Counted from the first letter of the stretch, positions 21,598-64,000 are shown. The stretch is 64,000 nucleotides of DNA from an uncultured bacterium (GCA_964403795.1 CAYOHP010000017.1:1821-65820); one strand, 5' to 3'. The notes: a model not told the origin generated them from the letters alone. Made by a program: numbers and translations.

Positions 21598-22921
<1,324 letters not shown>

Positions 22922-22947
<26 letters not shown>

Positions 22948-24946
22948 GGTCGCGGCGCGCCGGGCGCGACTTCCCCTGGCCGCTCTGGACCGCCAGGAAG
23001 TGCGCGGTCCGGGCCTCGAGATCGGCCGACGAGGCTCCGCTCCTGAGTCGCGAGCCCCGGGAGGCGCGGAGCAGGGCCACGGCCAGCCCGGCCTGCTCGG
23101 CCCGCACCGGGGGAGCGCCCAGGATCCGGACGGGATCGAGGTAGGCGAGCTCCCCCAGCACCAGCTCGGGCCGACGATCGAGCTCGGAGGCGACCAGGGT
23201 CGCCACCCGGGATGCGTCGGTCTCGCCCGCCTCGACCGCCCGCGCCGCCCGGTAACAGGCCGACGCCAGGAAGCGACTCACCGGCTCCAGGGCTCGCGCC
23301 AGTTCGATCCGTCCCTGGCGGGTGGCCGCCAGGGTCCTGTGCTCCCTCAAGCCCAAGGTCAAGGGATTGCCGATCCCGCTCCCGACCGAGGAGGGACCCG
23401 GCCACCGGTCGGCGTCGAGTCCGTAGCCCTCGGCGAGCCGTCGCTCCACCGCCGCCAGCTCCTCCCGGGATCTCTGCAGGGCGTCGAGGGCACCCCCGGA
23501 CCAACCCCTGAGGAGGGTTCCCGCCACCAGTCCGGGATGGCCGGCCTGGTCGTCGGTGGTGGCCAGGGTGGCCCCGGTCGGCAGCGGCTCGACGAAGGCG
23601 AGCAGGGGATGTCCGAGGCCCGCCCAGGCCAACTCCTGGTCCACCTCCCGGAGGAGTTCGCGGGTCTCCCTGGCCAGCCGTTCCGGGCGTCCCCCCTCGC
23701 CGAGCCAGACATGGAATGCGACGATCGGGGGGGAACCGGCCAGGATGGATTCCCGCTCGGCGGGATCGAGTTCCGGGGGCCCGGGCGTAGCCGAGAGCCA
23801 ATCCCGGATCCCGCTCGCCAGTTCGAGGATCCTCTTGTCCTCGCCTTCATGCCGGGCGTCGATCGGGGCCTTGGGATCAGGGGCCGCCGCGGCCGTACCC
23901 GGAGCGCCAGGGTCCACCCACGACCAGGCCACCAGGCCGGCGAGCGCGAGGACCGCCAGCAGCGAGGAGACCTCGAGGGCACGCCATGGGGCGCGGCGCG
24001 TGGTGCGGAGCCCGGCCGAGCGCATGGGGACGCTGCGGGCCGATCGAAGGTCGCCTGGATCCCGAGTCCCGTGGTCGGATGCCCGGTCGCCACGACAGGC
24101 TTTCTCCAACAGCTCCCGGGCGATCCCGGCGTCCCGGGGCCGGTCCTCCCTCTCCTTCTCCAGGAGCGTCGCCACCCATGAGGCCAGACCGGGAGGGATT
24201 CGGGGGTCGACCCGATCGAGACGCGGCGGGACCAGGACGGCGTGGTTCTCGAACACCCGGTCGATGCGATCGCTGCGGAAGGGATTGGCGCCGGTCAGGA
24301 GCTCGTAGACGATCACTCCCAGCGCATAGAGATCGTCGCGGGGATCGGGTTCGGCTCCGGTGGCCTGCTCCGGGGAGGCGTAGGCCGGGGTCCCGAGGAA
24401 GCAGCCGCTGGCCGTGAGTCCGGTCTCGTCGGAGACATGGGAGAGCCCGAAGTCGATCAGCTGGACCGACCCGTCGGGGAGCACCAGGACATTGGCCGGC
24501 TTCAGGTCGCGGTGGACCACTCCTTCGCGGTGGGCAGCCCGGAGGCCGGACAGCAGCTCCTCGGCCAGACGTCGGACCGCCTCGATCTCCCAGGGTCCGT
24601 TCCCGAGGAGGGTATCGAGCGATCGTCCTCCCGAATCCGGGTAGGCCAGGAAGAGGACCGCTCCTTCCGCCCCGTAGTCGAGGATGCTCACGATGTTGGG
24701 GTGCTGGAGACGGGCGAGCACCCTGGCCTCGCGCAGGAACCGGGCGGCGAGCCGGGTCTCGCGGTCCTCGGAGACCTTCACGACCTTCAGGATCACGGAC
24801 CGGTCGAGGTTCGCCTGGCGGGCCCGATAGACCCGGGATGCCGCCCCCGTCCCCACCGGTACCAGGTCGAGGTACCTTCCCCGGATCCCGGTCGGCAACC
24901 CGCTCTGCTGCGCCTCGGCCAGGGCGTACCCGGATTCCCCGGTCAT
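22922..24946 (-). CDS. Ser/Thr protein kinase with TM helix and C-terminal extracytoplasmic domain
   Basis: Internal start MTGESGYALAEA, in frame with the 934-aa ORF. Motifs VGTGAASRVYRA, HRDLKPANVLV, DFGL, GTPAYASPE. TM helix (LLAVLALAGLVAWSW). 3' end overlaps the convergent sigma-54 activator gene by ~26 bp. Start overlaps the epimerase stop (ATGA). Confidence 0.8.
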
Positions 24947-25971: not shown

Positions 25972-27873
25972 TCAGACCGCGGCCGCCAGGACCGCATCCT
26001 CGGCCGCGGCCTCGAAGCGATGGAGCAGGGCCGGGGAAGCCAGGGCGAGCGGCACCCAGCTCCCGTCCAGTTCCGCCATCCAGCCCCGCCGGACCGCCTC
26101 GGCGTAGGCCTGGCGCGAGGTCCGCGCCACCGGTCGCCGGACCAGGAGCCGACCGGCCTCTTCCGCCGAGAGGTCGATCCGCTCGGGTCCGAGGCCGAGG
26201 CCCCGGGTGTCGAGGAGCCGGAAGCCGGCTCCCTGCGCTTCGATCCGGAGCGTCGGAGGCTCGGCCCGGCTCCGGGCCCAGAGCGCCCTCCAGCTGGCCA
26301 CGGCCTGGCCGAGTTCCAGCATCAGCGGGCGGTTGCCGGGATCCAGCGCCGCGCTCGGGTAGGTACCGGTGAAGTGGTAGGCGATCCGGTCCACCGGGGA
26401 ACCGGGCGGGAACACGTCCCGGTACGACGCCAGGGGAGCCAGGCCGCTCACGCCATGCTCCTCGGCCCGGTCGAAATAGGGCGAGAAGCGGCTGACCATC
26501 ACCGGGACGATGGCCGGTGGCGGGAGGTGCCGGAGCCGAGGCACCAGTGCGAGGGTCTCCCGGTAGAACTCCACGAGGTCGTTGGGGAAGGCGACCAGCA
26601 GGTTCCAGTGCATGGCGATGCCGTAGGCCGAGGCGTAGCGCAGCGCCGCCACGTTCTGGGAGGCCGTCACCCCCTTGTCCATGAGGCGGAGCAGGCCCGA
26701 GGAGATGGCCTCGATCCCCGGCTGGATCGCGGTCACCCCGGCCTCCCGGAGCAGCCGCACCTTCTCCAGGGTGAGGTTCGACTTCTGCTCGTACCCGATC
26801 TCGAGCCCCGGGAGCTCCCCGGCTAGGCGCGGCAACAGGGTGCGGAAGTACTGGTGCGGCATGATGTTGTCGGTCATGGCGATGCGCCGGGTGGGGCTCG
26901 CGGAGACCAGCGTGCGGAGTTCGTGGACGACCTTGTCGGGGGACTTCTGGCGGAACCCCATCCCCTCGCCGTTCAGTCCGCAGAAGGTGCAGTGGCGCTT
27001 CTGCCCCCACCAGCAGCCCCGGCTCGATTCGTAGGGGATCCAGAGCTGCCCGGTCCTCGCCGCCTCGCTCCCGGGCAGGAGCCGCTCCAGGGCCCCGTGG
27101 AACTCCGAGAAGTCGGTGGTGGGGAGGGCCTCGAGATCGCGGCACGGCTCCCCGACCAGGATCCTCGGCGAAGGCTCGCCCCGGGCGCGCCGGGCGAGGA
27201 AGTCGGTGAAGGTGGCCTCGCTCTCCCCCGAGAAGACGTGATCGACCCAGGGCGCCACCGCCGCGATCCCCTCGCCCATGGCGGCTTCGCAGTTGGCACC
27301 CCCGATCAGGGTGAGGATCCCGGGACGGCGTCGCTTCACTTCCCGGAGCAGCGCCAGCGAGGCCCCGGTCTGTTCGAAGGTCGAGGTGCAGCCGACCACC
27401 TCGGGGTCGCCGGCGAGGATCGCGTCGACCGCCCCCGGGATCCAGGCGTGGGCCCGGGCCTCGAGGTCAAGGAGCAGGGACCGGGCCTGGTCGGGAGCCA
27501 CCACCCTGCCTCCCTCCCGGGCCAGCCAGGCCACGAACTCGGCCAGGATGCGTTCGCCCCCGTCGGCGCCCAGGGGCGGGAGGTCATGGGCCGCCCGGGC
27601 GAAGAGCCGCTCGCCGGCCAGCCAGGCCAGCGCCATGTGCTCGAAGTTGGCGTACTGGCGTTCGCCCAGACGGGCGGCCAGGGAGAGGTTGGCGTACTCG
27701 ATCCGGACCCGGTGGCCGGCGGCCCGGGCACAGGCCTGGAGGACATGCACTCCCAGCGAGGGGCGATCCAGGCTCCCGAAGGGCGGGACCACCAGGACGA
27801 CGGGAGCGGATCCGGGCCCGGGCCGCGAAGCCGCCGGCTGGATCCGGTCGGAAGGCATGCCGCGAGGGTACAC
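25972..27873 (-). CDS. B12-binding-domain radical SAM protein with non-canonical CX7CX2C cluster motif
   Basis: N-terminal cobalamin-binding-like Rossmann region. SRGCWWGQKRHCTFCGL in place of CxxxCxxC. Radical-SAM core follows. 633 aa. Confidence 0.7.
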   Translation of the reverse strand: MYPRGMPSDRIQPAASRPGPGSAPVVLVVPPFGSLDRPSLGVHVLQACARAAGHRVRIEYANLSLAARLGERQYANFEHMALAWLAGERLFARAAHDLPPLGADGGERILAEFVAWLAREGGRVVAPDQARSLLLDLEARAHAWIPGAVDAILAGDPEVVGCTSTFEQTGASLALLREVKRRRPGILTLIGGANCEAAMGEGIAAVAPWVDHVFSGESEATFTDFLARRARGEPSPRILVGEPCRDLEALPTTDFSEFHGALERLLPGSEAARTGQLWIPYESSRGCWWGQKRHCTFCGLNGEGMGFRQKSPDKVVHELRTLVSASPTRRIAMTDNIMPHQYFRTLLPRLAGELPGLEIGYEQKSNLTLEKVRLLREAGVTAIQPGIEAISSGLLRLMDKGVTASQNVAALRYASAYGIAMHWNLLVAFPNDLVEFYRETLALVPRLRHLPPPAIVPVMVSRFSPYFDRAEEHGVSGLAPLASYRDVFPPGSPVDRIAYHFTGTYPSAALDPGNRPLMLELGQAVASWRALWARSRAEPPTLRIEAQGAGFRLLDTRGLGLGPERIDLSAEEAGRLLVRRPVARTSRQAYAEAVRRGWMAELDGSWVPLALASPALLHRFEAAAEDAVLAAAV

Positions 27874-52690: not shown

Positions 52691-53998
52691 CTATTCCTCC
52701 GGCTCGGCCTCTCCCCCGCCGCGCATGACGGTGAGCCGGCGGTACAAGGTCGCCCTGCCGATCCCCAGCATCCGGGCAGCCCGGTTGCGATTGCCGCCGC
52801 AGCGGTCCAGGGCGACCTCGATCTCGGCGTCGGTGAGCGAGGCCGTCCGTTCCCGCTGGGCACGCATGATCTCCCCGGCCTCGCGACTCCATCCGGTCCT
52901 CGGGGCCGAACCGATCCTGAGGTCCCGCGCCCGGAGGATCCCATCGAGGGATACCGCCGCCGCGCCCCGGAGCACATAGGCCAGCTCCCGGATGTTCCCG
53001 GGCCAGGCATGGGCCCGCATGGCGTCCTTGGCATCGTCGGCCAGCGAGATCCCGGCCGGCAGGAACTCCCGGGCCAGGAGGAAGAGGTCGTCGCCCCGGG
53101 CCCGCAGGGGAGGGACGTCGAGGACCACCGCGCTCAGCCGGAAGAAGAGATCGGCCCGGAACGTCCCCTCGGCGACCCGGGCCGCCAGGTCCCGGTGGGA
53201 GGCGCTCACCACCCTCACCCGGACCCGCAGCGTCCCGGTGCTGCCCAGGGGCCGCACCTCCCCTTCCTGCAGGGCCCGCAGCAACTGGGACTGGATCGCC
53301 GCCGGCAGCTCCCCGATCTCGTCCAGGAAGAGGGTGCCGCCGTCCGCCGCCACGAAGGCTCCCTGGCGGGCCGCTCCCGCCCCCGTGTAGGCGCCCTCGA
53401 CGTGTCCGAACAACTCGCTCCGGGCGGTCTCGGGATCCGAGAGCTGGGTGCAGTCCACGACCTGGTAGGGACCTTCGGGATCCCGCCCGAGGCGATGGAT
53501 GGCGCGGGCCAGGAGTTCCTTGCCGGTCCCCGTCTCGCCCTGGAGCAGCAGGGGGAGGTCGAGCGGCGCCACCTTCTCGACCAGCGAGAGCAGGTCGGCG
53601 AGCGCTCGGCTGTTGCCGATCACCCCCGCGAAGCTCTCCCTCCGGGGGGGCGTGACCGGGAGGTGGTCCGTCCGGGAGCGCAGCACGAAGGCACTCGATC
53701 CAAGGCGCACGGTCTGATCCGGGGCCAGGTCGGCATCGCGGACCCTGACCTTCTCGACGAAGGTCCCGGACCGGGACTCGAGATCGACGACCCGGTATCC
53801 GGTACCGGAGGGTTCGAGGCGCAGGTGCTCGCGCGAGACCGAAGGATCCCGGAACACCAGGTCCGCGGTCTCGGAACGTCCCAGGATCACAGGCTGGTCC
53901 GTGAGGGCCCGTTCGAGTCCGGCCTCGGGCCCCTCGGTCACGACCAGGACCATCCGTTCGAGCCGCAGGGCGACCCCCTGGGCCGAGGTGGTCAGCAT
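52691..53998 (-). CDS. Sigma-54-dependent transcriptional activator with N-terminal FHA domain (paralog 2)
   Basis: Internal start MLTTSAQGVALRLERMVLVV (alternative ATG 54 bp upstream). FHA (VILGRSETADLVFRDPSVSREHLRLEPSGTGYRVVDLESRSGTFV). AAA+ (GETGTGKE, ELFGHVEGAYTGA, DLFFRLSAV). HTH (AARMLGIGRATLYRRL). Confidence 0.9.
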   Translation of the reverse strand: MLTTSAQGVALRLERMVLVVTEGPEAGLERALTDQPVILGRSETADLVFRDPSVSREHLRLEPSGTGYRVVDLESRSGTFVEKVRVRDADLAPDQTVRLGSSAFVLRSRTDHLPVTPPRRESFAGVIGNSRALADLLSLVEKVAPLDLPLLLQGETGTGKELLARAIHRLGRDPEGPYQVVDCTQLSDPETARSELFGHVEGAYTGAGAARQGAFVAADGGTLFLDEIGELPAAIQSQLLRALQEGEVRPLGSTGTLRVRVRVVSASHRDLAARVAEGTFRADLFFRLSAVVLDVPPLRARGDDLFLLAREFLPAGISLADDAKDAMRAHAWPGNIRELAYVLRGAAAVSLDGILRARDLRIGSAPRTGWSREAGEIMRAQRERTASLTDAEIEVALDRCGGNRNRAARMLGIGRATLYRRLTVMRGGGEAEPEE

Positions 53999-54099
53999 GC
54001 TGCGGGTGGTGGATTCGCTCACCCCGCCATTGCACCAGAGGGCCGGTGCCATCGCAATTCCGCTCTGCCGCGTCCCAGGTCGCCCGTACACTCGTCCCG

Positions 54100-56148
54100 A
54101 TGACAGGTCCCGATCCCGACCCGCGCTACGGACGTCGCTACCAGGCGATCCGCCTGGTCGGGAAGGGCGCCAACGGCGAGGTCTACGAGGCCCTCGACAC
54201 CCGCCTGGAACGGAGGGTGGCGGTGAAGGTCTTCGGGGCGAGCCCCGACTTCGACGCCGGTCGGCAGCGCTTCACCCGGGAGGCAAGGCTGCTCGGTTCC
54301 CACCCGCACCCCGCGATCGTCGCGGTCCTCGATGTGGACATGGAGTCGGATCCGCCCTTCCTGGTGCTGGCCTGGATGCCGGGGGGAGACCTGGCGGACC
54401 TGCTGCGCCTGAGCGGTGCCCTGCCGGCGGCCGAGGTGGTCCGGATCGGTGCCCGTCTGGCCTCCGCCCTCGCCCACCTCCACGGGCTCGGGATCCTGCA
54501 CCGGGACGTGAAGCTCGAGAACGTCCTGCGGGACGAGGCCGGGGAGGTCGCGCTCGCCGACCTGGGCCTCGCCGCCGGTGAGGGCATGGCGCCCCTGACC
54601 AAGACGGGATTCCTGGTAGGGACGCCCCGCTACATGGCGCCCGAGCTCGCCCACGAGGGGGTCTACTCGGCGGCCTCCGACCTCTTCGCCCTGGGTGTGG
54701 TCCTGGCGGAACTGGGGACCGGGCAGCGGCGGAGCGTCTCGGCGCCCGACCGGGATCGGGAATCCGAGGACCTGGCGGGGAGCCTCGAGCCGGCGTCGCT
54801 CCGGACCCTGGTCCGCAGCCTCCTCCACAGCCAACCGGGATGGAGACCGGCCAGCGCCAGGGAAATCGCGGAACGCCTGGACGCGATCGGGAGCGAGCTC
54901 TCGGGCGCACCCGTGGGACGCGTCCCGACCTCCACCCTCGAGGACGCGACCAGCGAGGTCCCCGGATCCACGGTGGTGGCACCCGGGAGGCCATCTGCGG
55001 TCGCGGGGCAGGAAGCCGGGTGGTCTGCCGTGCGCCGCCGGGCGGCAGGCGCGGCGGTCGGCGCCCTGGTGGCGCTGCTGGCGATGTCATGGGCGAGGAT
55101 CCGACCCGTCCTCGGTGGCGATCCCGGTTCCGGGGATCCCCGACCCGGGTCGACGAACGTCCCTGCCCCGCCACCCGGGCCGGGAGCCGCGGAAGCGCTG
55201 GCGAAGGCCATGGCGCCTCGTCGCAGGTGTCTGCTCGAGAGCTGGGACCGGACCGACCCGGCGGCCCTGGAGGGACTCGCCGCCCGGATCGAGCGGGTCG
55301 CCGACCAGGAGTGCTTCCAGAGACGAGGGGAACTCCGGGAGATCCTCGCCCGCGCCCTCGACGGAGGCCGTGACGGCGCCACGGCCCCGGTCCTGGAAGC
55401 CTCGGCTCCCTGGTTCGAGGCTGCCGAGCAGGTGCGCCTGCTCACCATGGACCTCGGGACATGGAACCTGGAGCGCTTCGACCGTCGGGACGAGTTCCTG
55501 GCGATGACCGAACGCCTGGAGCAGGTCCAGGACCTGGATCGGCAGCTCGCTTCCGAGATCCTGGTGCCGCGGTTCTCGGAACGGGCGGGCCTGCTCGACC
55601 TGGCGATGCTCGCAGAGGCCCGGCGCACCGATCTGCTCCCGGGGTTCGACGACGTGCTACTGGCGCGGCGCCTGGCCGCCGGGCTCCGGGACGGGGGGGA
55701 GGTCGCAGGCGTCGACGCAGCCGGCACCGCGCTCGCCCGGCTGCTCGACCACGCGCTCCAGCGGGCCCAGACCGACGCCCTGGGACCCGGCCGGCCGCTG
55801 CCCCTGGAACACCTCGATCTCCTGGTCGGCCTGGCGATCCGTCCCGGGAGCCCGGATCGCCACCGGGTCTCGTTCCTCGACCACACCCTCGCCCTGGCGG
55901 CCCACTACGTCTTCATGAGCGCGTTCCGGGACGTGGTCCCTGCGGTACGCGCCGCCGAGCTGGCCCAGCGGCTCCTGGACCGGATCGAGCAGGATGGCGG
56001 TCGCGCCCGCTTCGGCTACCGCCTCCCTGAGGAAGGCTGGTGGGGGCCGCGGCAGCCGGCCTCGAACGCCACCAACCCGGCCGTGGCGGCGCTGCGGTCC
56101 CGCATCCTCTCGCTGCTCGGGCCGGAGGCGTCCCCGACCGGGAGGTGA
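54100..56148 (+). CDS. Ser/Thr protein kinase with TM helix and C-terminal domain
   Basis: Internal start MTGPDPDPRYGRRYQAIRLVGKGANGEVYEA (ORF begins at a GTG 54 bp upstream). HRDVKLENVL, DLGLA, GTPRYMAPE. TM (AAVGALVALLAMSWA). Divergent from the FHA sigma-54 activator with a ~100-bp intergenic region. Confidence 0.8.
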   Translation: MTGPDPDPRYGRRYQAIRLVGKGANGEVYEALDTRLERRVAVKVFGASPDFDAGRQRFTREARLLGSHPHPAIVAVLDVDMESDPPFLVLAWMPGGDLADLLRLSGALPAAEVVRIGARLASALAHLHGLGILHRDVKLENVLRDEAGEVALADLGLAAGEGMAPLTKTGFLVGTPRYMAPELAHEGVYSAASDLFALGVVLAELGTGQRRSVSAPDRDRESEDLAGSLEPASLRTLVRSLLHSQPGWRPASAREIAERLDAIGSELSGAPVGRVPTSTLEDATSEVPGSTVVAPGRPSAVAGQEAGWSAVRRRAAGAAVGALVALLAMSWARIRPVLGGDPGSGDPRPGSTNVPAPPPGPGAAEALAKAMAPRRRCLLESWDRTDPAALEGLAARIERVADQECFQRRGELREILARALDGGRDGATAPVLEASAPWFEAAEQVRLLTMDLGTWNLERFDRRDEFLAMTERLEQVQDLDRQLASEILVPRFSERAGLLDLAMLAEARRTDLLPGFDDVLLARRLAAGLRDGGEVAGVDAAGTALARLLDHALQRAQTDALGPGRPLPLEHLDLLVGLAIRPGSPDRHRVSFLDHTLALAAHYVFMSAFRDVVPAVRAAELAQRLLDRIEQDGGRARFGYRLPEEGWWGPRQPASNATNPAVAALRSRILSLLGPEASPTGR

Positions 56149-56793: not shown

Positions 56794-58179
56794 CTACCCG
56801 ACGCCGAGATCGAGTCGATCCGCCAGTTCCTCCAGCGAGGGGTGGAGGATCCGGCCGTCCCCCAGCGATCCGGCCTCGGCCGGGAGGTTCCGGGTGAGGC
56901 GCTTCAAGCCGTAGAAGCCGTTCATGGCCGCCGAGAGCACCTGGCCGCCACGGGAAAGCTGCCTCGCCCCTCGTACCAGGCGCGCCGCCACCCTCCCGGG
57001 CGAGAACGTCCGATCCCACAGTTCCCGGTGGGCCCGTAGCAGCTCGTCCGGCGTCATCCGCGCCGGCGTGAAGGCCACGTTGTAGCCGTTGTAGTGGTCC
57101 CAGCCGAGCTCCGGGCGGAGCCGACCCGAACCGAGCCATTCCTGGTAGATGCGGGTCCCCCGGAAGGGCGTGAGGATGCTGAGGAAGGGCACGTCGAACT
57201 CGAGCTCCTGGAGCTGGTCCGCCATCCGCACGATGCTCTCCGGCGTCTGGCAGTCGAAGCCCGCGATGAATCCGGCCATGACGCAGATGCCCCGGTCATG
57301 GAGGCGCTCCACCGCCTCGCCGTAGGCGGCCACCCGGTTCTGGCGCTTGGTCACGCTCTCGAGGGCATCCTCCTCGAAGCTCTCGATCCCGAGGAAGATG
57401 CCGGCACAGCCGGAAGCCTCCATGAGATCGAGCAGCTCGGGATCCCTCACGATGTCGATGCTGGCCTGGGTGAGCCACCACCGGTCGAGGCCCCGGAGCT
57501 CGCGCAGGAGGTCCTTGGCCCAGGCGCGCTGGACCAGCAGGTTGTCGTCCCAGAACCAGACCAGTCGCTCCTGCCACCAGTGGGGGAAGTGCGACCCGGC
57601 GACGTCCCGCACCACCTCCTCGACCGGCCGGACCCGGAAGCCCGGGTTCAGGTCGGGCACGGTGCAGAACCCGCAGGTGAAGGGGCAGCCCCGGGTCGCC
57701 TGCAGGACCCGCGGCACCATGAAGGCCGGCTCGAGCAGGTCGTAGCGGGGCGTGGGGAGGCCGGCCAGTTCCGGGGCACCACCCCGGTAGACCCGGTCCG
57801 GGGTCCCGGCCGAGAAGTCCTCCACCACCCGAGGCCAGATCGCATCGGCCTCGCCGGTCACCACCGCGTCGAAGTGCTGGAGGGCCTCGTCCACCCAGTA
57901 GGTGACATGGGGGCCGCCGGCCACCACCGGGACACCCAGGGCCCGGTAGGCGTCGGCGACCTCGTAGGCCCGGCGGGCGAAACCGGAGAAGAAGCTGATC
58001 GCCACCAGATCGGGCCAGCCGTCCACGGGTACCGGGCGCACCTGTTCATGGACCAGATCGACTTCGTGCTCGCGGGGCGTCAGCGCTGCCAGGTGCATGC
58101 CCGTCACCGGGGGAACCATGTGCCAGGCATGCCCCCGGAGGTAGCGGGGCAGGTAGCTGACCACGATGCGGATCCTCAC
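56794..58179 (-). CDS. B12-binding-domain radical SAM protein (canonical CxxxCxxC)
   Basis: Putative GTG start (MRIRIVVSYLPRYL, Rossmann strand of the B12 domain). Radical-SAM motif ATRGCPFTCGFCTV. Upstream ORF portion is junk. Alternative ATG starts lie 60-80 bp downstream. Confidence 0.7.
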   Translation of the reverse strand: MRIRIVVSYLPRYLRGHAWHMVPPVTGMHLAALTPREHEVDLVHEQVRPVPVDGWPDLVAISFFSGFARRAYEVADAYRALGVPVVAGGPHVTYWVDEALQHFDAVVTGEADAIWPRVVEDFSAGTPDRVYRGGAPELAGLPTPRYDLLEPAFMVPRVLQATRGCPFTCGFCTVPDLNPGFRVRPVEEVVRDVAGSHFPHWWQERLVWFWDDNLLVQRAWAKDLLRELRGLDRWWLTQASIDIVRDPELLDLMEASGCAGIFLGIESFEEDALESVTKRQNRVAAYGEAVERLHDRGICVMAGFIAGFDCQTPESIVRMADQLQELEFDVPFLSILTPFRGTRIYQEWLGSGRLRPELGWDHYNGYNVAFTPARMTPDELLRAHRELWDRTFSPGRVAARLVRGARQLSRGGQVLSAAMNGFYGLKRLTRNLPAEAGSLGDGRILHPSLEELADRLDLGVG

Positions 58180-58299
58180 GAGGCGCCTCCCTCGGTCCCT
58201 GCGAAGGTAGCCCGGCCCCTGCTCCCGGAGACGCCGGGCACCGGCGGCGGCACCCACCGGATACACTCGGAGGGGTCGGATCCCCGCACCGGAACCTCC

Positions 58300-59139
58300 A
58301 TGCTCGCGATCTACGCGTTCCTCTCGGTCGTCGCCATCTCGCTCCTGATCCTCAGGGTCGGGACCATCGCCCTCATGCTGACCGGCCTCTCGGAGGACCT
58401 CGCTGCCTTCCAGGCACTCTCGGCCTTCACCGGGACGGGCTTCACGACCTCCGAGGCCGAGTCGATGATGAGCCATCCCGGGCGTCGCAGGATCGTCCGC
58501 GACCTGATGATCCTCGGGAACATGGGAGTCGTCTCGGCCGTCTCGACCGCGATCCTGACGGTGGGCTCGCTCGCAAGCTCCCAGCAGGGGGAGCAGTCCC
58601 TGATGGTGCTCCTCTGCGGCCTCGGCCTGATCTCGGCGACCAGTTTCCACCCGAAGTTGCGGCGGGCCATCTCGATTCCCATCCAGAAGTCCCTCGAGGC
58701 GCTCACGGACCTCGAACTCAAGGACTACGCGGACCTGCTCCAGGTCGAGGGCGGCTACCGGGTAGCCGAGCTGCGGATCGGCGCCGACCACTGGGCCTGC
58801 GGGAAGACCCTGCTGCAGCTCCGCCTCGCCGACGAAGGCGTCTGGATCCTGGGGATCCGCCGGGCCGACGGACGCTATCTCGGGGTCCCGGTGCCGACGA
58901 CCGCCGTCCTGGCCGAAGACCACCTGATCGTCTACGGGAAGGCCCAGGAACTCGCCGACCTGGCCCACCGCAAGCAGGGCCCCGAAGGGGACGCCGAGCA
59001 CCGCGCCGCCAAGATCCGGGCAGACCGGATCGAAGCGGCCGAGATCCTGGAGGACCGCCTGGCATTGGAGGCTCCGGAACCCGCGGATCCGGAGGGTCCG
59101 CGCGGGGATCCCCCCGGGAACCCTTCTCAGGGCTCGTAG
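58300..59139 (+). CDS. 2-TM ion-channel-like membrane protein with C-terminal RCK_C (TrkA-C) domain
   Basis: Internal ATG (MLAIYAFLSVVAISLL) with GGAGGGG upstream. TM1 - pore-like segment ALSAFTGTGFTTSE - TM2 - RCK_C (YRVAELRIGADHWACGKTLLQLRL...HLIVYG). Confidence 0.55.
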   Translation: MLAIYAFLSVVAISLLILRVGTIALMLTGLSEDLAAFQALSAFTGTGFTTSEAESMMSHPGRRRIVRDLMILGNMGVVSAVSTAILTVGSLASSQQGEQSLMVLLCGLGLISATSFHPKLRRAISIPIQKSLEALTDLELKDYADLLQVEGGYRVAELRIGADHWACGKTLLQLRLADEGVWILGIRRADGRYLGVPVPTTAVLAEDHLIVYGKAQELADLAHRKQGPEGDAEHRAAKIRADRIEAAEILEDRLALEAPEPADPEGPRGDPPGNPSQGS

Positions 59140-59230
59140 CCGGTCTTCGACCTGCCGAGGGGGATCTGCCGATGAGGACCACCGGCTCCCGGATCCCCGG
59201 GTACTCTGGCCCCCGACCCAGGAAGGCTCC

Positions 59231-60199
59231 ATGCGACACCCGTCCTCGTTCCTCGTGCTGGTCCTCGCTTCGGGGCTGGGGCTGGCGTCGGCCGGATGGG
59301 CCGGAGACCCGGCGAATGCCCCTGGACGCACCTTCGCCCCGCCCACGGTGTTTCCCCAGCCCTCGGTCGAGGCGCTCCCCACCATGCGGTCGGCGGCCGG
59401 CGAGCTGGTGGCCCGTGCCAAGGTGACCCTCCCTCCCGGGGCCTACATGCGTCCCCCGGGAGAGGAGCTCTCGCCCCTGGTGGTGCAACCCGCACCGGGA
59501 CCCGGCATCGAGTGGGGGACCATAGAGTTGGAACCGGTCCGATCCCGTCCTCCCCGGGGCAACGCGGTCTTCGACGCGCTGGTGGGAGAGTTCGAGGTGA
59601 GGGTTCGCTCCAGGGCCCCTGCTCCCCCGGTCGCGACCTGGTCGCCTGGACTGGCGCTCCGGGGCGCGATCGAGCTGGCCGGGGGAGTCTGCATTCCCCT
59701 CTCTCGCGAGGTCCTGGCACCGGCAGGAGACTCCTCGGCTCCCTCCCCGGGCAGCGCCCGCGAAGGTCGCCTCCGGGTGGAGGCCGGGCAGCCCGACGCC
59801 CGTACCCGGATCCTCCCGGGCGAGCGCATGATGATCGGGGCCGCGGCCGTGACCGAGCTTCCTGCGGGCAGCTACCACCTGGTGATCGACGCTCCCCACC
59901 GCCATCCGGAGCGTCGCCAGGTCACCGTGGAGCCAGGGCGCGAGACCGTGGTCACGACCTCCCTGGCACCGGCACGGCCGGCGCACCTCCTGCTCTCGGT
60001 CTTCCCCGAGGGCGCCCGGGTAGAGGAAGGCGGGAAGCTGCTCGGCATCTCGGGCCCCCACCTCGTCCTGACCCTGGAGCCCGGGTTCCACGTGCTCGAA
60101 CTCCGACTGCCCGGGCACCGGGAGGTCTTTCCCAGCTTCGAGCTGCGCTCCGGCGAGCGCCGGCGGGCGCTCCACCGACTCATCCCCGAATCGAGGTAG
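59231..60199 (+). CDS. Secreted PEGA-domain protein
   Basis: Signal peptide (MRHPSSFLVLVLASGLGLASAGWAG). C-terminal PEGA-like beta-sandwich (LLLSVFPEGARVEEGGKLLG...GFHVLELRLPGH), preceded by a similar repeat. Confidence 0.55.
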   Translation: MRHPSSFLVLVLASGLGLASAGWAGDPANAPGRTFAPPTVFPQPSVEALPTMRSAAGELVARAKVTLPPGAYMRPPGEELSPLVVQPAPGPGIEWGTIELEPVRSRPPRGNAVFDALVGEFEVRVRSRAPAPPVATWSPGLALRGAIELAGGVCIPLSREVLAPAGDSSAPSPGSAREGRLRVEAGQPDARTRILPGERMMIGAAAVTELPAGSYHLVIDAPHRHPERRQVTVEPGRETVVTTSLAPARPAHLLLSVFPEGARVEEGGKLLGISGPHLVLTLEPGFHVLELRLPGHREVFPSFELRSGERRRALHRLIPESR

Positions 60200-60275
60200 C
60201 GGCCGGCGGCAGCGGCCGCCCGAGTCGTCTCCGGAGCGTGTACGCTCGACCAGGCCGAATCCGAGGGGGCATGGC

Positions 60276-62033
60276 ATGAGGACCCACGAGACGAGCGAGG
60301 CCTGGTTCCAGGGATCCGACGGGGCCCGCCTCTTCTACCGCATGTGGAAGCCCCGGGAGCCGAGCAACCGGGCCGTGTTCCTGTTCCATCGGGGGCACGA
60401 GCACTCGGGTCGGCTGATGGAGCTGGCCGAGGACCTGGAGCTGGACGGGTTCTGGATCTTCGCCTGGGACCAGCGGGGCCACGGCCGCTCTCCGGGCGAC
60501 CGGGGCTACGCCGACAGCCTGTCCCAGGTGGTCGCCGACCTCGACCGCTTCGTCGCCCACGTGGGCGCGACCCACGGCATCCCGATCGAGGAGACGGCGG
60601 TGGTCGCCTACAGCGTGGCCAGCGTGATCGTCTCGGCCTGGGTGCATGACTACGCACCCCGGATCCGCGCCATGGTGCTCGCCGCCCCGGCGCTACGGGT
60701 CAAGCTCTACGTGCCCTTCGCCCTGCCCCTGCTCCGCCTCCAGAGGTGGCTCCTGGGTCCTGCGGCCCGGGTCGACAGCTACGTGAAGTCGCGGATGCTG
60801 ACCAGCGACCCCGAGAAGGCCCGCGAGTACGACGCCGATCCCCTGATCGCCCGGGCCATCGCCACCAACCTGTTGATCGACCTCTTCGACACCTCGACCC
60901 GGCTGATGGCAGATGCCGGCGCCATCCGGGTCCCGACCCTGCTCCTGACCGCGGGCTCCGACTGGGTGGTGGAGACCGAGCCCCAGCGCAGGCTGTTCGA
61001 GGGTTTGGGATCCCGCATCAAGGAGCACGAGGTCTATCCCTCCTTCCACCACGCCATCTTCCACGAGAAGCAACGCCACCTCCCGGTGGAGCGGACCCGG
61101 CGCTTCCTGTTCGAGGCCTTCGCCTCCCCTCCCGAGGACGAGTCCGACCTGCTCGAGGCGGACCGCCATGGCTACACCCGCGACGAGTTCGAGCGCCTGA
61201 ACCGCCAGCTCCGTCCCACCGACCCCAAGGCCTGGTGGTTCGCCCTGGGTCGGCTCTTCCTCGATACCGTGGGGCGGCTCTCCGACGGGGTCCGGATCGG
61301 ATGGGCCAGCGGCTTCGATTCGGGCGAGATGCTGGACTACGTCTACGAGGACCGGGCCTCGGGGCTCGGGACCGCAGGCCGCCTTCTGGACCGGGTCTAC
61401 CTCGACCAGATCGGGTGGGAGGGGATCCGGATCCGCCGGCGACACCTGGCCGCCCGGGTGAGGACCGCCATCGACGAGGCGCTGGCGGCACGCGGCAAGG
61501 CCCACGTCGTCGACGTGGCGGCCGGTCCCGGCCGGTACCTGATCGAGCTCTCCCGGGAACTCGGCGAGGCGCCGGTCACCATGCTCTGTCGCGACTGGAG
61601 CGAGACCGCGGTCCAGGCCGGCCGTGTCCTGGCCCGCCGGCAGGGCGCTACCCGGGTCGCCCACGCCCGGGGCGACGCCTTCGACCCCGACTCCCTGGCC
61701 GCCCTCGATCCCCGGCCCGACGTGGCCGTGATCTCCGGGCTGTTCGAACTCTTCCCCGAGAACGCCCCGATCCGCCGGTGCCTGGCGGGACTCCGCAGGG
61801 CCCTGCCCCAGGGCGGGACGCTGGTCTACACCAACCAGCCCTGGCACCCGCAGGTGGAGGACATCGCCCGGATGCTGGTGAACCGGGAGGGCAAGGCCTG
61901 GATCATGCGCCGGCGCACCCAGGCGGAGATGGATGCCCTGGTCCGGGAGGCCGGCTTCGAGAAGCAGGGAATGGACGTCGATCCCTGGGGGATCTTCACC
62001 GTCTCCCGGGCGGTCCTCCGCTCGCCGCAGTGA
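60276..62033 (+). CDS. Bifunctional alpha/beta-hydrolase (lysophospholipase/MGL-like) / class I SAM-dependent methyltransferase
   Basis: N-terminal region (FLFHRGHEHSGR, VVAYSVAS GxSxG-like nucleophile elbow, PTLLLTAGSDWVV). C-terminal SAM-methyltransferase fold (HVVDVAAGPGRYL motif I, DVAVISGLFE). Confidence 0.7.
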   Translation: MRTHETSEAWFQGSDGARLFYRMWKPREPSNRAVFLFHRGHEHSGRLMELAEDLELDGFWIFAWDQRGHGRSPGDRGYADSLSQVVADLDRFVAHVGATHGIPIEETAVVAYSVASVIVSAWVHDYAPRIRAMVLAAPALRVKLYVPFALPLLRLQRWLLGPAARVDSYVKSRMLTSDPEKAREYDADPLIARAIATNLLIDLFDTSTRLMADAGAIRVPTLLLTAGSDWVVETEPQRRLFEGLGSRIKEHEVYPSFHHAIFHEKQRHLPVERTRRFLFEAFASPPEDESDLLEADRHGYTRDEFERLNRQLRPTDPKAWWFALGRLFLDTVGRLSDGVRIGWASGFDSGEMLDYVYEDRASGLGTAGRLLDRVYLDQIGWEGIRIRRRHLAARVRTAIDEALAARGKAHVVDVAAGPGRYLIELSRELGEAPVTMLCRDWSETAVQAGRVLARRQGATRVAHARGDAFDPDSLAALDPRPDVAVISGLFELFPENAPIRRCLAGLRRALPQGGTLVYTNQPWHPQVEDIARMLVNREGKAWIMRRRTQAEMDALVREAGFEKQGMDVDPWGIFTVSRAVLRSPQ

Positions 62034-63340
62034 GTCCGCCCCCCGGCCCGGCCCGGTCGCTCCCGGCAGCCACCGGCTGGATGCTGGCGTGCTCCGTCTG
62101 GTTCATGCTGGCCTACAACGCCTGCACCTGGATCACGTCGCGCCGGAGCGACGTCGGCACCTGGTTCTTCGAATGGGAACTCTCGATCCCGTTCGTGCCG
62201 GCCATGATCGTCCCCTACTGGTCGCTCGACCTCCTGTTCGTGGCCGGCTTCTTCGTGTGCCGGAGCCGCGACGAGGTCGCGGTGCTCGGCAAGCGACTGG
62301 CCCTGGCGACCCTGGCGGCCTCCGTCGGCTTCCTCCTCTTCCCCCTCCGGCTCGGCTTCCCGAGACCCCCGGTCGAGGGCTTCTACGGGATGCTCTTCGA
62401 CTTGCTCCGCAGCTTCGACGCTCCCTTCAACCTCTGCCCTTCGCTGCACATCGCGCTCCGCACCCTCCTCGCCGACACCTATGCCCGCCATACCCGGGGA
62501 GCGCTCCGGGTCGCGGTCCATCTGTGGTTCTCGCTGATCGGGTTCTCGACGCTGCTCACCTGGCAGCACCACCTGATCGACGTGGCCGGCGGGTTCGTAC
62601 TGGCGACGCTGTGCTTCTACGCGGTGAGGGAACGGCCCTCGACAGGGGTGGTGCCGAATCCCAGGATCGCCCTCTGGTACGGCCTGGCGCTCGTCGCCTG
62701 TCTCGGGGCCGCCCGAGCCACGGGCGGACCGGTCGGCCTGCTGCTGCTCTGGCCGGCCCTCTGCTTCGGGCTCCTGGTGGCCGGGTACCTGCGCCTCGGT
62801 CCATGGGTCTACGGCAAGACCGGCCCGGAGATCCCCCTGGCACCGCGACTGGTGATGGCACCATGCCGCCTCGGACAGGAGCTGTCACGACGCTGGTACG
62901 CGAAGGAGTGCCGGCCCTGGGACCCGGTCGCCCCGGGGATCTGGATCGGACGCCAGCTCGACGACGCCGAGGCCGCCGCGGCAGTGGCCCAGGGGGTCAC
63001 CGCGGTCCTCGACCTCACCGCCGAGTTCCAGGCTCCGGGGCCCTTCGCGGCGCTTCCCCGGCTCGACCTGCCGGTCCTCGACCTCACTCGCCCCTCCCGC
63101 GCCGAGCTCGAGGCCGGGCTCGCCTTCCTCGCCGAACACGCGCCCCGGGGCACCGTCTACGTGCACTGCAAGATCGGCTACTCGCGCTCGGCCGCCATGG
63201 TGGGCGCATGGCTGATCCGCTCCGGGGCGGTCCGGGATGCCGAGGCCGCAGTGGCCCGCCTCCGGGAGGTGCGGCCCACGATCGTGGTGCGACCGGAGGC
63301 CTGGGACGCACTCCGCGAGATCGCTGCCTCGGGGCGCTGA
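62030..63340 (+). CDS. PAP2 (type-2 phosphatidic-acid-phosphatase) membrane domain fused to dual-specificity protein-phosphatase (CX5R) domain
   Basis: GTG start overlapping the upstream stop (GTGA), or ATG 51 bp downstream. PAP2 motifs (CPSLHIA, LTWQHHLIDV). 6 TM helices. C-terminal VHCKIGYSRSAAMV = HCxxGxxRS phosphatase P-loop. Confidence 0.65.
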   Translation: MSPPPGPARSLPAATGWMLACSVWFMLAYNACTWITSRRSDVGTWFFEWELSIPFVPAMIVPYWSLDLLFVAGFFVCRSRDEVAVLGKRLALATLAASVGFLLFPLRLGFPRPPVEGFYGMLFDLLRSFDAPFNLCPSLHIALRTLLADTYARHTRGALRVAVHLWFSLIGFSTLLTWQHHLIDVAGGFVLATLCFYAVRERPSTGVVPNPRIALWYGLALVACLGAARATGGPVGLLLLWPALCFGLLVAGYLRLGPWVYGKTGPEIPLAPRLVMAPCRLGQELSRRWYAKECRPWDPVAPGIWIGRQLDDAEAAAAVAQGVTAVLDLTAEFQAPGPFAALPRLDLPVLDLTRPSRAELEAGLAFLAEHAPRGTVYVHCKIGYSRSAAMVGAWLIRSGAVRDAEAAVARLREVRPTIVVRPEAWDALREIAASGR

Positions 63341-63344
63341 GAGA

Positions 63345-63986
63345 TCACTCCCAGGCCGGGAACTTGCCCTCTTCCGCCAGGCGGGCCATGCGCTCGCCGA
63401 GCTCGGCCATGAAGCCTTCCTTGGTACCGGTCCACGAGAATGGTTCCCCCACGAAGACGTCGCAGAAGAACGGCACCAACAGGGCCTCTCCCTTGGGCAG
63501 GGCCTTCCCCAGCCCGTGCATGAAGACGGGATAGACCGGGACCTCGGGGAAGGTCTCGGCCAGGAAGGCGACTCCGCTCTTCAGCGGCTTGGCGCGCTCC
63601 GGATCCCCACGGGTCCCCTCCGGGAAGAAGATCACGATGCGGTCCTCGGCCAGGGCATCGAGCACCGGGGCCAGGATCTCCTGGCGGGACTTCCCGCCGG
63701 ATCGGTCCAGCGGGATGATCCCCAGGATCGTGCGCGAGAACCAGGACAGCAACGCATTCCGGAAGAAGTAGTCGGCGGCCCCGACCGGACGCACCATCGG
63801 CAACCGTCGGGTCGGGAAGAGGCTCATCAGCACCAGGGCATCGAGGTGGCTGTTGTGGTTGGCGACCACCAGGGCCGGACCTCGGGAAGGCAGGCGGCGA
63901 CGATGGCGCACGTTCACTCCCAGCGCCAGGGCCAGGAAGGGGCGCACCACCAGGCTGAAGAAGAGACGGCGCAGGAAGTGGTTCAC
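63345..63986 (-). CDS. plsC: 1-acyl-sn-glycerol-3-phosphate acyltransferase (PlsC/LPLAT family)
   Basis: NHNSHLDA (HX4D), FPEGTR, LAETFPEVPVYPVF motifs. 213 aa. Confidence 0.8.
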   Translation of the reverse strand: MNHFLRRLFFSLVVRPFLALALGVNVRHRRRLPSRGPALVVANHNSHLDALVLMSLFPTRRLPMVRPVGAADYFFRNALLSWFSRTILGIIPLDRSGGKSRQEILAPVLDALAEDRIVIFFPEGTRGDPERAKPLKSGVAFLAETFPEVPVYPVFMHGLGKALPKGEALLVPFFCDVFVGEPFSWTGTKEGFMAELGERMARLAEEGKFPAWE

Positions 63987-64000
63987 GGGGTCCAGGGCAG

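Follow-up and report, generated by a model that had tools for sequence, protein, structure and literature searches.

Probable Arc1-type accessory phospholipid genes at a window edge, beside an unrelated B12-radical-SAM gene, in an uncultured bacterium

Six genes occupy positions 56794 to 63986 of a 64,000-nucleotide stretch of DNA from an uncultured bacterium (GCA_964403795.1 CAYOHP010000017.1:1821-65820), referred to here as the window. All six, with the domains ascribed to them in a first-pass annotation made from the sequence alone, are present as described: the strands hold, the domains are matched by Pfam, and codon-position GC is consistent with the gene calls (Table 1). The radical-SAM gene starts at a GTG preceded by a GGGAGG site; it runs divergently from the other genes, with 120 bp between, and therefore lies outside their transcription unit. 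A competing ORF of 875 aa over the same region, running to 59421, was rejected as a high-GC artefact. The genes for the TrkA_C and PEGA proteins are on the same strand as, and upstream of, the gene for a hydrolase-methyltransferase fusion, while plsC is convergent with the gene for a PAP2/dual-specificity-phosphatase (PAP2-DSP) fusion, with 4 nt between them. All three lipid proteins of the window (hydrolase-methyltransferase, PAP2-DSP and PlsC) have intact catalytic motifs.

Table 1. Genes and protein domains in the 7-kb stretch, in window coordinates.
Feature	Coordinates	Strand	Remarks
B12-radical-SAM gene	56794-58179	-	461 aa; Pfam Radical_SAM 59.5 bits, B12-binding 35.3 bits
TrkA_C-domain membrane protein	58300-59139	+	Pfam TrkA_C 39.3 bits
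PEGA-domain secreted protein	59231-60199	+	Pfam PEGA 33.8 bits
Hydrolase-methyltransferase fusion, Arc1B-like	60276-62033	+	585 aa; Hydrolase_4 211.8 bits, Methyltransf_20 371.5 bits
Hydrolase domain, monoacylglycerol-lipase/lysophospholipase-like	60363-61073	+	residues 30-266, N-terminal
Methyltransf_20 domain	61098-62012	+	residues 275-579, C-terminal; SAM-binding motif DVAAGPG
PAP2/dual-specificity-phosphatase fusion, Arc1C-like	62030-63340	+	PAP2_3 27.9 bits (cut-off 27), DSPc 50.8 bits
PAP2_3 catalytic core	62249-62623	+	PSLH and QHHxxD, the invariant His-His-Asp set
Dual-specificity phosphatase domain	62972-63322	+	P-loop HCKIGYSR (CX5R) at residue 362; conserved upstream Asp in LDLT
PlsC-type lysophospholipid acyltransferase, Arc1E-like	63345-63986	-	at least 213 aa; Pfam Acyltransferase 89.8 bits

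The hydrolase-methyltransferase fusion (Pfam Hydrolase_4, E 1.2e-62; Methyltransf_20, E 4e-111) belongs to a family named in RefSeq 'bifunctional alpha/beta hydrolase/class I SAM-dependent methyltransferase'. Its hydrolase domain has a nucleophile elbow, AYSVA (Ser113), together with GSDW (Asp229) and the FHH/FHE histidines, and the closest solved structures are monoacylglycerol lipases, those of M. tuberculosis (6eic, E 1.3e-24) and human (MGLL, E 3e-16). For the methyltransferase domain, an AF2 model (pLDDT 93.5) was compared with known folds by Foldseek. An uncharacterised Bordetella protein (3ocj) ranked first. Next came the small-molecule methyltransferases RdmB, DnrK and PhzM, as well as Rv2258c, and none of the high-ranking matches was a lipid-specific methyltransferase. 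This domain is without an informative relative, a point counted against the cluster explanation developed below.

The PAP2-DSP protein is 436 aa long if read from GTG 62030, or 419 aa from ATG 62081, and both starts are used by gene callers. The GTGA overlap with the preceding gene, read in the first-pass annotation as coupling, is real, while the alternative ATG leaves the choice of start ambiguous. Overlapping starts are usual for this pair of genes in other genomes. An N-terminal PAP2_3 domain of eight helices is followed by a C-terminal cytoplasmic dual-specificity-phosphatase domain, an architecture shared by more than 2000 homologues (RefSeq 'phosphatase PAP2/dual specificity phosphatase family protein'). 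The fusion and its CX5R motif stand as annotated; the membrane domain, labelled there simply a lipid-phosphate phosphatase, instead matches PAP2_3, the Aur1/sphingomyelin-synthase-like branch. The C1 motif of phosphatases, KxxxxxxRP, lacks its Lys here and retains RP alone, and the top fold matches are SMSr, inositol-phosphorylceramide (IPC) synthase and Aur1, at sequence identities of 13-16% and with a small margin over PAP2 phosphatases. The window's PAP2_3 gene has no ceramide pathway nearby, and a transferase role like that of the SMS/IPC-synthase branch (SMSr, Aur1) is putative. For the second domain, a profile of 23 homologues found PTPMT1 as the top PDB match (3rgo, E 2.1e-17). This mitochondrial phosphatidylglycerophosphate phosphatase is the closest solved relative of the domain, and the P-loop HCKxGxSR is common to both; the window's version is bacterial and is joined to a membrane domain of eight helices, and its lipid substrate is putative.

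The product of plsC has the acyltransferase motifs HX4D (HNSHLD) and PEGTR. Its scores, 64.1 against a cut-off of 102.95 for TIGR00530 and 21.6 against 501 for PRK15018, are below the cut-offs of the PlsC (1-acyl-sn-glycerol-3-phosphate acyltransferase) equivalog; as judged from its sequence, the protein can be assigned no more narrowly than to the lysophospholipid acyltransferase family at large. Its reading frame continues without a stop to base 63998, so that translation may in fact begin outside the window, which ends 14 nt past the called start. Public contigs that carry this sequence end inside plsC, and no record of its product was found. In almost every other cluster of this kind (see below) a CdsA-like gene lies directly upstream of plsC. 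Neither a CdsA-like nor a CDP-alcohol phosphatidyltransferase gene was found in the 64-kb window. The cluster is probably cut at base 64000, just before the CdsA-like gene, and its completeness in this genome is inferred.

The first-pass annotation did not recognise this combination of genes. It is that of the Arc1 cluster of Pseudomonas aeruginosa (PMC8926400), as judged by primer location, architecture and sequence identities. PA2541-36 are arc1A-F, antagonism resistance cluster 1 (Ting et al. 2022), of which five of six genes are related to phospholipid metabolism; the core phospholipid genes of P. aeruginosa are located elsewhere (PMC8926400). Four Arc1 genes are homologous to enzymes of phosphatidylglycerol synthesis, and the genes have been taken as phosphatidylglycerol-type (PMC8926400). 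Arc1 defends the cell against type VI secretion (lipase) attack and is induced through Gac/Rsm (PMC8926400), and arc1A has been linked to resistance against lipase effectors (PMC12663445). The evidence for Gac/Rsm regulation and for the type VI defence role comes from Pseudomonas alone. The literature searched reports no lipid product for Arc1-type clusters.

The Arc1 locus was located with primers published for deleting PA2541 and PA2536 in PAO1, which flank a six-gene locus with exact matches in contigs L088, L090 and L093 and 0-2 mismatches in L087. By Pfam its order is CDP-OH_P_transf / Hydrolase_4+Methyltransf_20 / PAP2+DSPc / 150-aa protein / Acyltransferase / CTP_transf_1. The window's hydrolase-methyltransferase has the same Pfam architecture as the gene at the PA2540 position, just downstream of PA2541; across 581 aa it is 49.6-49.7% identical to the copies of that gene in P. 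aeruginosa contigs L090 and L093. The PAP2-DSP fusion is 39% identical to the gene at the Arc1C position over 410 aa. The acyltransferase is 33% identical to Pseudomonas PlsC, compared with 54-61% to PlsC proteins inside the Arc1-type clusters L003, L057 and L068. The CdsA-like and small CDP-alcohol transferase genes of Arc1 also occur in other members of the family. In Arc1 plsC is co-directional, whereas in the window it is convergent, an arrangement not seen among 45 well-flanked loci. The 150-aa Arc1D-like gene has no homologue in the window or at 84 non-Pseudomonas loci; it is confined to Pseudomonas and Burkholderia loci and thus does not belong to the core of the family as a whole.

A genome scan with an alignment of the PAP2-DSP protein gave matches in 314 species, and 84 loci were used for neighbourhood analysis. 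The hydrolase-methyltransferase gene adjoins PAP2-DSP in 79 of these, the remaining loci being interrupted by contig ends; about 60 have a CdsA-like gene, 53 have PlsC and about 59 have a CDP-alcohol transferase. When only the 45 loci with at least 6 kb on each side are considered, the two fusions are adjacent in every one (45/45), and all four partners of PAP2-DSP, i.e., the full five-gene set, occur in 34. Three long contigs for which Pfam calls already existed, and a Burkholderia record annotated by RefSeq, agree with this. The core in other genomes thus consists of a small CDP-alcohol phosphatidyltransferase, a CdsA-like phosphatidate cytidylyltransferase, a PlsC-type acyltransferase and the two fusions; the window shows the last three of these five. 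Five-gene co-occurrence extends to Planctomycetota, Verrucomicrobiota, Acidobacteriota, Methylomirabilota, Nitrospirota, Elusimicrobia and Pseudomonadota. The triad of hydrolase-methyltransferase, PAP2-DSP and plsC singled out in the first-pass annotation is a co-conserved glycerolipid unit; its three genes lie side by side far beyond chance, and the grouping recurs across phyla. We estimate a probability of roughly 0.8 that 60276-63986 is the visible part of a widespread Arc1-type accessory phospholipid cluster and that the radical-SAM, TrkA_C and PEGA genes are unrelated, lineage-specific neighbours.

The reaction types encoded by such clusters (acylation, CTP activation, phosphatidyl transfer and dephosphorylation) are those of the canonical phosphatidylglycerol pathway (PlsC, CdsA, PgsA, PgpA/B/C). 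The proteins differ from it in several ways. The phosphatase is a PTPMT1-like cysteine phosphatase joined to an SMS/Aur1-like PAP2_3 domain rather than PgpA, PgpB or PgpC, phosphatidylinositol-phosphate (PIP) synthases are closer to the transferase than PgsA is, a lipase-methyltransferase fusion is added, and no Arc1-type cluster protein is at an equivalog cut-off. In the proposed scheme PlsC would make phosphatidate and the CdsA-like enzyme would activate it, giving the cluster a CDP-diacylglycerol branch of its own. The phosphatidyltransferase could then add a phosphorylated polyol, with glycerol-3-phosphate or an inositol-phosphate-like compound as acceptor, and the cytoplasmic dual-specificity phosphatase domain would take off the terminal phosphate, as PTPMT1 does on phosphatidylglycerophosphate. 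The sphingomyelin/IPC-synthase-like PAP2_3 domain may move or remove the phospho-headgroup, and the hydrolase-methyltransferase is predicted to deacylate a lyso- or monoacyl-lipid and to methylate a product. The P. aeruginosa operon is induced by danger sensing and guards against type VI-delivered lipases; by analogy with it, the general role is probably to renew or remodel the phospholipid of the membrane when phospholipases or lysolipids put it under stress. Since the host is not a gammaproteobacterium, Gac/Rsm control cannot apply, and the presence of the cluster in phyla without Gac/Rsm signalling suggests general membrane maintenance rather than a Pseudomonas-specific defence.

Some class-B radical-SAM enzymes act on lipids, for example HpnP and HpnR. 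The first-pass annotation joined the B12-radical-SAM enzyme and the lipid genes of the window in a single lipid-tailoring system (C-methylation, membrane-spanning or ether lipids). In such a system the substrate of the radical-SAM enzyme would be provided or processed by the acyltransferase and the phosphatases. The genes do lie within 7 kb, and the canonical CX3CX2C motif (CPFTCGFC, at residue 165) and the B12-binding domain are confirmed, an architecture shared with HpnP/HpnR/HpnJ, the ladderane family TIGR04072, BchE and PhpK. Across these families, however, the protein scores 40-84 bits against cut-offs of 360-650 (HpnJ, 64 vs 578; HpnR, 39.7 vs 650; TIGR04072, 43.3 vs 360), HpnP is not among its matches at E 0.01, and no curated class-B family cut-off in NCBIfam, lipid-related or other, is reached. 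Its closest solved relative is AprD4, a diol dehydratase (E 8e-11). Orthologues with 65-73% identity occur in Polyangia (Polyangium, Sorangium, Labilithrix); all five orthologue loci compared (proteins of 67-72% identity) are without any lipid gene and have no neighbour in common with the window, and none of the 84 Arc1-type loci has a radical-SAM homologue within 10 kb of the cluster. The lipid genes are without a relative above 60% identity, which suggests separate histories. With the gene also divergent, the radical-SAM gene is a stand-alone class-B (B12-binding) enzyme and not part of the lipid unit; a joint system is close to refuted by the absent co-conservation and the family scores, and we regard it as highly improbable. 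The TrkA_C and PEGA genes, also placed in the lipid neighbourhood, drop out of it, with homologues at 0/84 Arc1-type loci. A chance juxtaposition of housekeeping lipid genes with no dedicated pathway would be favoured by how common PlsC-type acyltransferases and PAP2 proteins are in bacterial genomes, but it is refuted by the co-occurrence counts (fusions adjacent 45/45, five genes together across the groups listed above), and its probability is negligible. The encoding of the P. aeruginosa core phospholipid genes elsewhere (PMC8926400) also counts against it.

Kinase genes nearby could point to the dual-specificity domain as a protein phosphatase in Ser/Thr/Tyr signalling, with the PAP2 domain acting on undecaprenyl pyrophosphate or lipid A. 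This is very unlikely: the fusion is invariably beside phospholipid-synthesis genes across phyla, the top match of the domain is the lipid phosphatase PTPMT1, and the kinase is not co-conserved. More probable than this, though still less likely than not, is the idea that the cluster is biosynthetic rather than for repair and makes a distinct lipid with a modified headgroup: a PIP-synthase-like enzyme would form a phosphatidyl-polyol-phosphate, the DSP domain would dephosphorylate it, PAP2_3 would transfer the phospho-polyol to a second lipid, and the methyltransferase would O-methylate it. The CDP-alcohol transferases of the clusters score higher for archaetidylinositol-phosphate synthase (60-74 bits) and PIP synthase (36-51 bits) than for PgsA (about 20 bits), and their closest solved relatives are PIP synthases; the fold matches of PAP2_3 (SMSr, IPC synthase, Aur1) and the small-molecule type of methyltransferase fold also fit. 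Since the transferase scores better against (archaetidyl)inositol-phosphate synthases than against PgsA, the headgroup is uncertain. Against a biosynthetic role, its scores are all far below the family cut-offs (170-180 bits), and among 51 loci there is no co-conserved gene for an inositol-phosphate synthase or for any other supply of a headgroup. P. aeruginosa is not known to make inositol lipids, which also counts against it. The published view of Arc1 as phosphatidylglycerol-type (PMC8926400) is a further objection. More speculative still, Arc1-type clusters may encode an undescribed phospholipase-resistant lipid, made by a PIP-synthase-like step that yields a phosphatidyl-polyol-phosphate, PTPMT1-type dephosphorylation, headgroup transfer to a second lipid by PAP2_3, and trimming and O-methylation by the lipase-methyltransferase. 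Such a pathway would be of ancient origin and widely distributed among Planctomycetota, Verrucomicrobiota, Acidobacteriota and Myxococcota-like bacteria.

An Arc1-type accessory phospholipid cluster remains the preferred reading, and the window's genes are then a further, edge-cut copy of a cluster already named and already reported to be widely conserved. What the domain analysis adds is a set of testable hypotheses on its chemistry: a PTPMT1-like phosphatase, a sphingomyelin/IPC-synthase-like PAP2 domain, a phosphatidyltransferase nearer to PIP synthases than to PgsA, and a monoacylglycerol-lipase-like hydrolase with a small-molecule-type methyltransferase. A false lead has also been removed, and a B12-radical-SAM gene beside lipid genes needs a check of co-conservation before any lipid-tailoring role is read into it. 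A phospholipase-resistant lipid, if such a product is made, could explain the protection that Arc1 gives against type VI lipases.

At the end of the window, the hydrolase-methyltransferase fusion, the PAP2-DSP fusion and plsC form a new, window-truncated member of an already described gene cluster, the Arc1 type. All six genes listed by the first-pass annotation in this region are present, with significant Pfam matches for their domains and with their catalytic motifs. The interpretation that they make up one lipid-tailoring neighbourhood holds in part. The triad does form a co-conserved lipid unit; the B12-radical-SAM, TrkA_C and PEGA genes are neighbours unrelated to it. Since GC is about 71-72% across the whole window, spurious long open reading frames are abundant, and gene limits were set by codon-position GC and inspection of start sites. 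Transcription of the radical-SAM gene diverges from that of the other genes, with a gap of 120 bp between. plsC is read towards the phosphatase fusion, from a called start 14 nt before the end of the window. Scanning 56-64 kb for promoters and terminators gave nothing informative in this 71% GC DNA.

Genes between 56794 and 63986 of the window, with domain matches and motifs
Gene	Position	Strand	Evidence	Remark
B12-binding radical-SAM	56794-58179	-	significant Pfam matches; CPFTCGFC	
TrkA_C-domain membrane protein	58300-59139	+	significant Pfam match	
PEGA protein	59231-60199	+	significant Pfam match	
Hydrolase_4 + Methyltransf_20 fusion	60276-62033	+	Pfam; AYSVA, GSDW, DVAAGPG	
PAP2_3 + DSPc fusion	62030-63340	+	Pfam; PSLH, QHHLID, HCKIGYSR	alternative start ATG 62081
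PlsC-type acyltransferase	63345-63986	-	Pfam; HNSHLD, PEGTR	

The PAP2-DSP fusion is widespread: over 2000 homologues share its architecture. An alignment scan of one genome per species found it in 314 species, predominantly Planctomycetota and Verrucomicrobiota, with others in Acidobacteriota, Methylomirabilota, Binatia, Nitrospirota, Elusimicrobia and some Pseudomonadota. Three long contigs with homologues of 51-55% identity share one neighbourhood: CTP_transf_1 (CdsA-like), acyltransferase, Hydrolase_4/Methyltransf_20, PAP2/DSP and a weak CDP-OH_P_transf. Radical-SAM, TrkA_C and PEGA genes occur in none of the three. By tblastn of 84 loci, the hydrolase-methyltransferase is found in 79 (the misses are contig ends), a CdsA-like gene in about 60, a small CDP-alcohol transferase in about 59 and PlsC in 53; none of the 84 has the window's radical-SAM, TrkA_C or PEGA protein. 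Conservation of the triad was a check that the first-pass annotation had proposed. In the 45 loci flanked by 6 kb or more on either side, the hydrolase-methyltransferase accompanies PAP2-DSP in every case, and all four partners are present in 34. When all open reading frames of 51 well-flanked loci were clustered, the only recurrent families were the five core ones and their antisense shadows, with no sixth conserved partner such as an inositol-phosphate synthase or flippase. ABC ATPase, CorA-like and glyoxalase-like families occur in a few related genomes only. The lipid genes of the window have no relative more than 60% identical.

This gene set is reminiscent of PA2536-PA2541 of Pseudomonas aeruginosa. 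That operon has been named arc1A-F ('antagonism resistance cluster 1'); it is controlled by Gac/Rsm and required for survival of Burkholderia thailandensis type VI attack. Five of the six genes are predicted to function in phospholipid metabolism, and four resemble enzymes of phosphatidylglycerol synthesis, the core pathway for which is encoded elsewhere (PMC8926400). A 2025 study implicates arc1A in resisting lipase effectors (PMC12663445), and PA2537 is reported to be an acyltransferase homologue that is toxic when overexpressed (PMC4086342). The literature searched reports no Arc1 product, and a search for Methyltransf_20 / PF12147 found no papers.

The published deletion primer across the PA2541 start codon, searched for as an exact match in metagenome contigs, recovered Pseudomonas contigs of about 68.5% GC. 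Other PA2541 primers are exact in three contigs (L088, L090, L093), and one locus, L087, is bracketed by PA2541 and PA2536 primers with 0-2 mismatches. The order in the Pseudomonas locus is CDP-OH_P_transf, Hydrolase_4+Methyltransf_20, PAP2+DSPc, a 150-aa protein, Acyltransferase and CTP_transf_1. Compared with the window, the Arc1 proteins show 49.6% identity for the hydrolase-methyltransferase (581 aa), 39% for PAP2-DSP (410 aa) and 33% for the PlsC-type protein. A RefSeq-annotated Burkholderia ambifaria record has the same six genes, named phosphatidate cytidylyltransferase, lysophospholipid acyltransferase family protein, CDP-alcohol phosphatidyltransferase family protein, bifunctional alpha/beta hydrolase/class I SAM-dependent methyltransferase, phosphatase PAP2/dual specificity phosphatase family protein and hypothetical protein. 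The whole Arc1-like set stands beside the cellulose synthesis genes bcsB and bcsZ in a 19-kb B. ambifaria 'plasmid' record (L102, NZ_CP066768.1), typed as non-mobilizable, which may be a chromosomal fragment and not a plasmid. The 150-aa protein, Arc1D, is limited to Pseudomonas and Burkholderia loci, so the phylogenetically broad core consists of five genes, three of them visible in the window. In 12 Verrucomicrobiota loci (L041, 11276-11707, and 11 others) the PAP2-DSP gene is immediately followed by a membrane ORF of some 144 aa; it has the position and size of Arc1D, with no BLAST similarity, and is possibly a positional analogue.

The 64-kb window itself has neither a CdsA-like nor a CDP-alcohol transferase gene. 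In almost every cluster plsC is directly preceded by a CdsA-like gene, and by analogy one would lie just past base 64000 here. With the PAP2-DSP and radical-SAM proteins as queries, the only sequences retrieved were Logan contigs, every one ending within plsC. An exact sequence look-up of the PlsC product gave no match, probably because the true start is outside the window. Three independent public assemblies (L097, L098 and L099, each at position 1) break off at one and the same base within plsC, window position ~63870, and the window sequence itself runs on from there to 64000. As this common end suggests, there may be a repeat, strain variation or a coverage problem just past it.

The radical-SAM protein is a tightly conserved stand-alone enzyme. 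Its orthologues include proteins of Polyangium, Sorangium and Labilithrix and are 65-73% identical, in contrast to the lipid genes with their relatives of at most 60%. In five orthologue loci, viewed to 8 kb on either side (Polyangium aurulentum, a Sorangium strain and three metagenomic contigs), there are no lipid genes, and the loci have no neighbour in common with one another or with the window; tblastn of all the window's neighbour proteins confirms this. Against NCBI curated models, hopanoid and ladderane lipid families included, the protein scores 40-84 bits for cut-offs of 360-650, and its best solved relative is AprD4. Homologues of the window's three radical-SAM proteins are absent from the ORFs of the 51 well-flanked Arc1-type loci. 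The first-pass annotation had made this enzyme part of the lipid system and had named neighbours not co-conserved with it as evidence to the contrary, and that is what both sets of loci show.

The window's other B12-radical-SAM gene (25972-27873) lies a gene or two from an FHA-sigma54 activator/Ser-Thr kinase pair (21598-22947 / 22922-24946), as does the one treated here (pair at 52691-54052 / 54100-56148); the recurrence may reflect a regulatory theme, or coincidence, the genome being rich in kinases. At only 24% identity over 243 residues, the two are unlikely to be paralogues in a shared system. The third radical-SAM gene (9067-10428, minus strand) is of the lysine-2,3-aminomutase type (LAM_C + Radical_SAM, CSTYCRYC). 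The TrkA_C protein has an SAFTGTGF loop between two hydrophobic helices, which resembles the selectivity loop of TrkH/KtrB potassium transporters. A TrkH gene adjoins the radical-SAM orthologue in a Sorangium genome (L100, 9404-11149); two of six genomes thus have a K+-transport gene next to this radical-SAM gene, perhaps by chance.

Relatives of the individual domains bear on what an Arc1-type cluster makes. The best solved relatives of the hydrolase domain are monoacylglycerol lipases. The DSP-domain profile first matches PTPMT1, the mitochondrial phosphatidylglycerophosphate phosphatase. For the PAP2-DSP proteins of the window and L087 (7957-9240), the sole NCBIfam match is PRK12361, a 546-aa 'hypothetical protein' model (68-86 bits, cut-off 505); the match spans positions 14-234, and the DSP-containing half is therefore common to a longer, uncharacterised family. 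In a fold search, the model of the methyltransferase domain (pLDDT 93.5) is similar to an uncharacterised Bordetella protein and to generic small-molecule methyltransferases; by sequence, the domain has only a marginal match among solved structures (5f8c, E 0.007). The CDP-alcohol phosphatidyltransferases of three clusters (L087 5407-6042, L003 9286-9972, L001 5836-6558) score 60-74 bits with archaetidylinositol-phosphate synthase, 36-51 with PIP synthase and about 20 with PgsA, all below cut-offs, and the best solved relatives of Arc1-type phosphatidyltransferases are PIP synthases. From these sequence comparisons, the published PgsA-like reading of Arc1A may be too narrow.

Together, the relatives of the hydrolase, DSP, methyltransferase and phosphatidyltransferase suggest a CDP-diacylglycerol branch that is self-contained. 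A phosphatidyl-(polyol-phosphate) would be formed and then dephosphorylated on the cytoplasmic side; the headgroup would next be transferred or removed at the PAP2_3 site, and a lyso- or monoacyl intermediate would lose an acyl chain and gain a methyl group through the lipase-methyltransferase. Such a branch fits a cluster that renews or repairs phospholipid during phospholipase stress, in line with the Pseudomonas phenotypes, and it also fits one that synthesises a distinct modified lipid. For the chemistry of the Arc1 pathway, the domain assignments made here supply concrete experiments.
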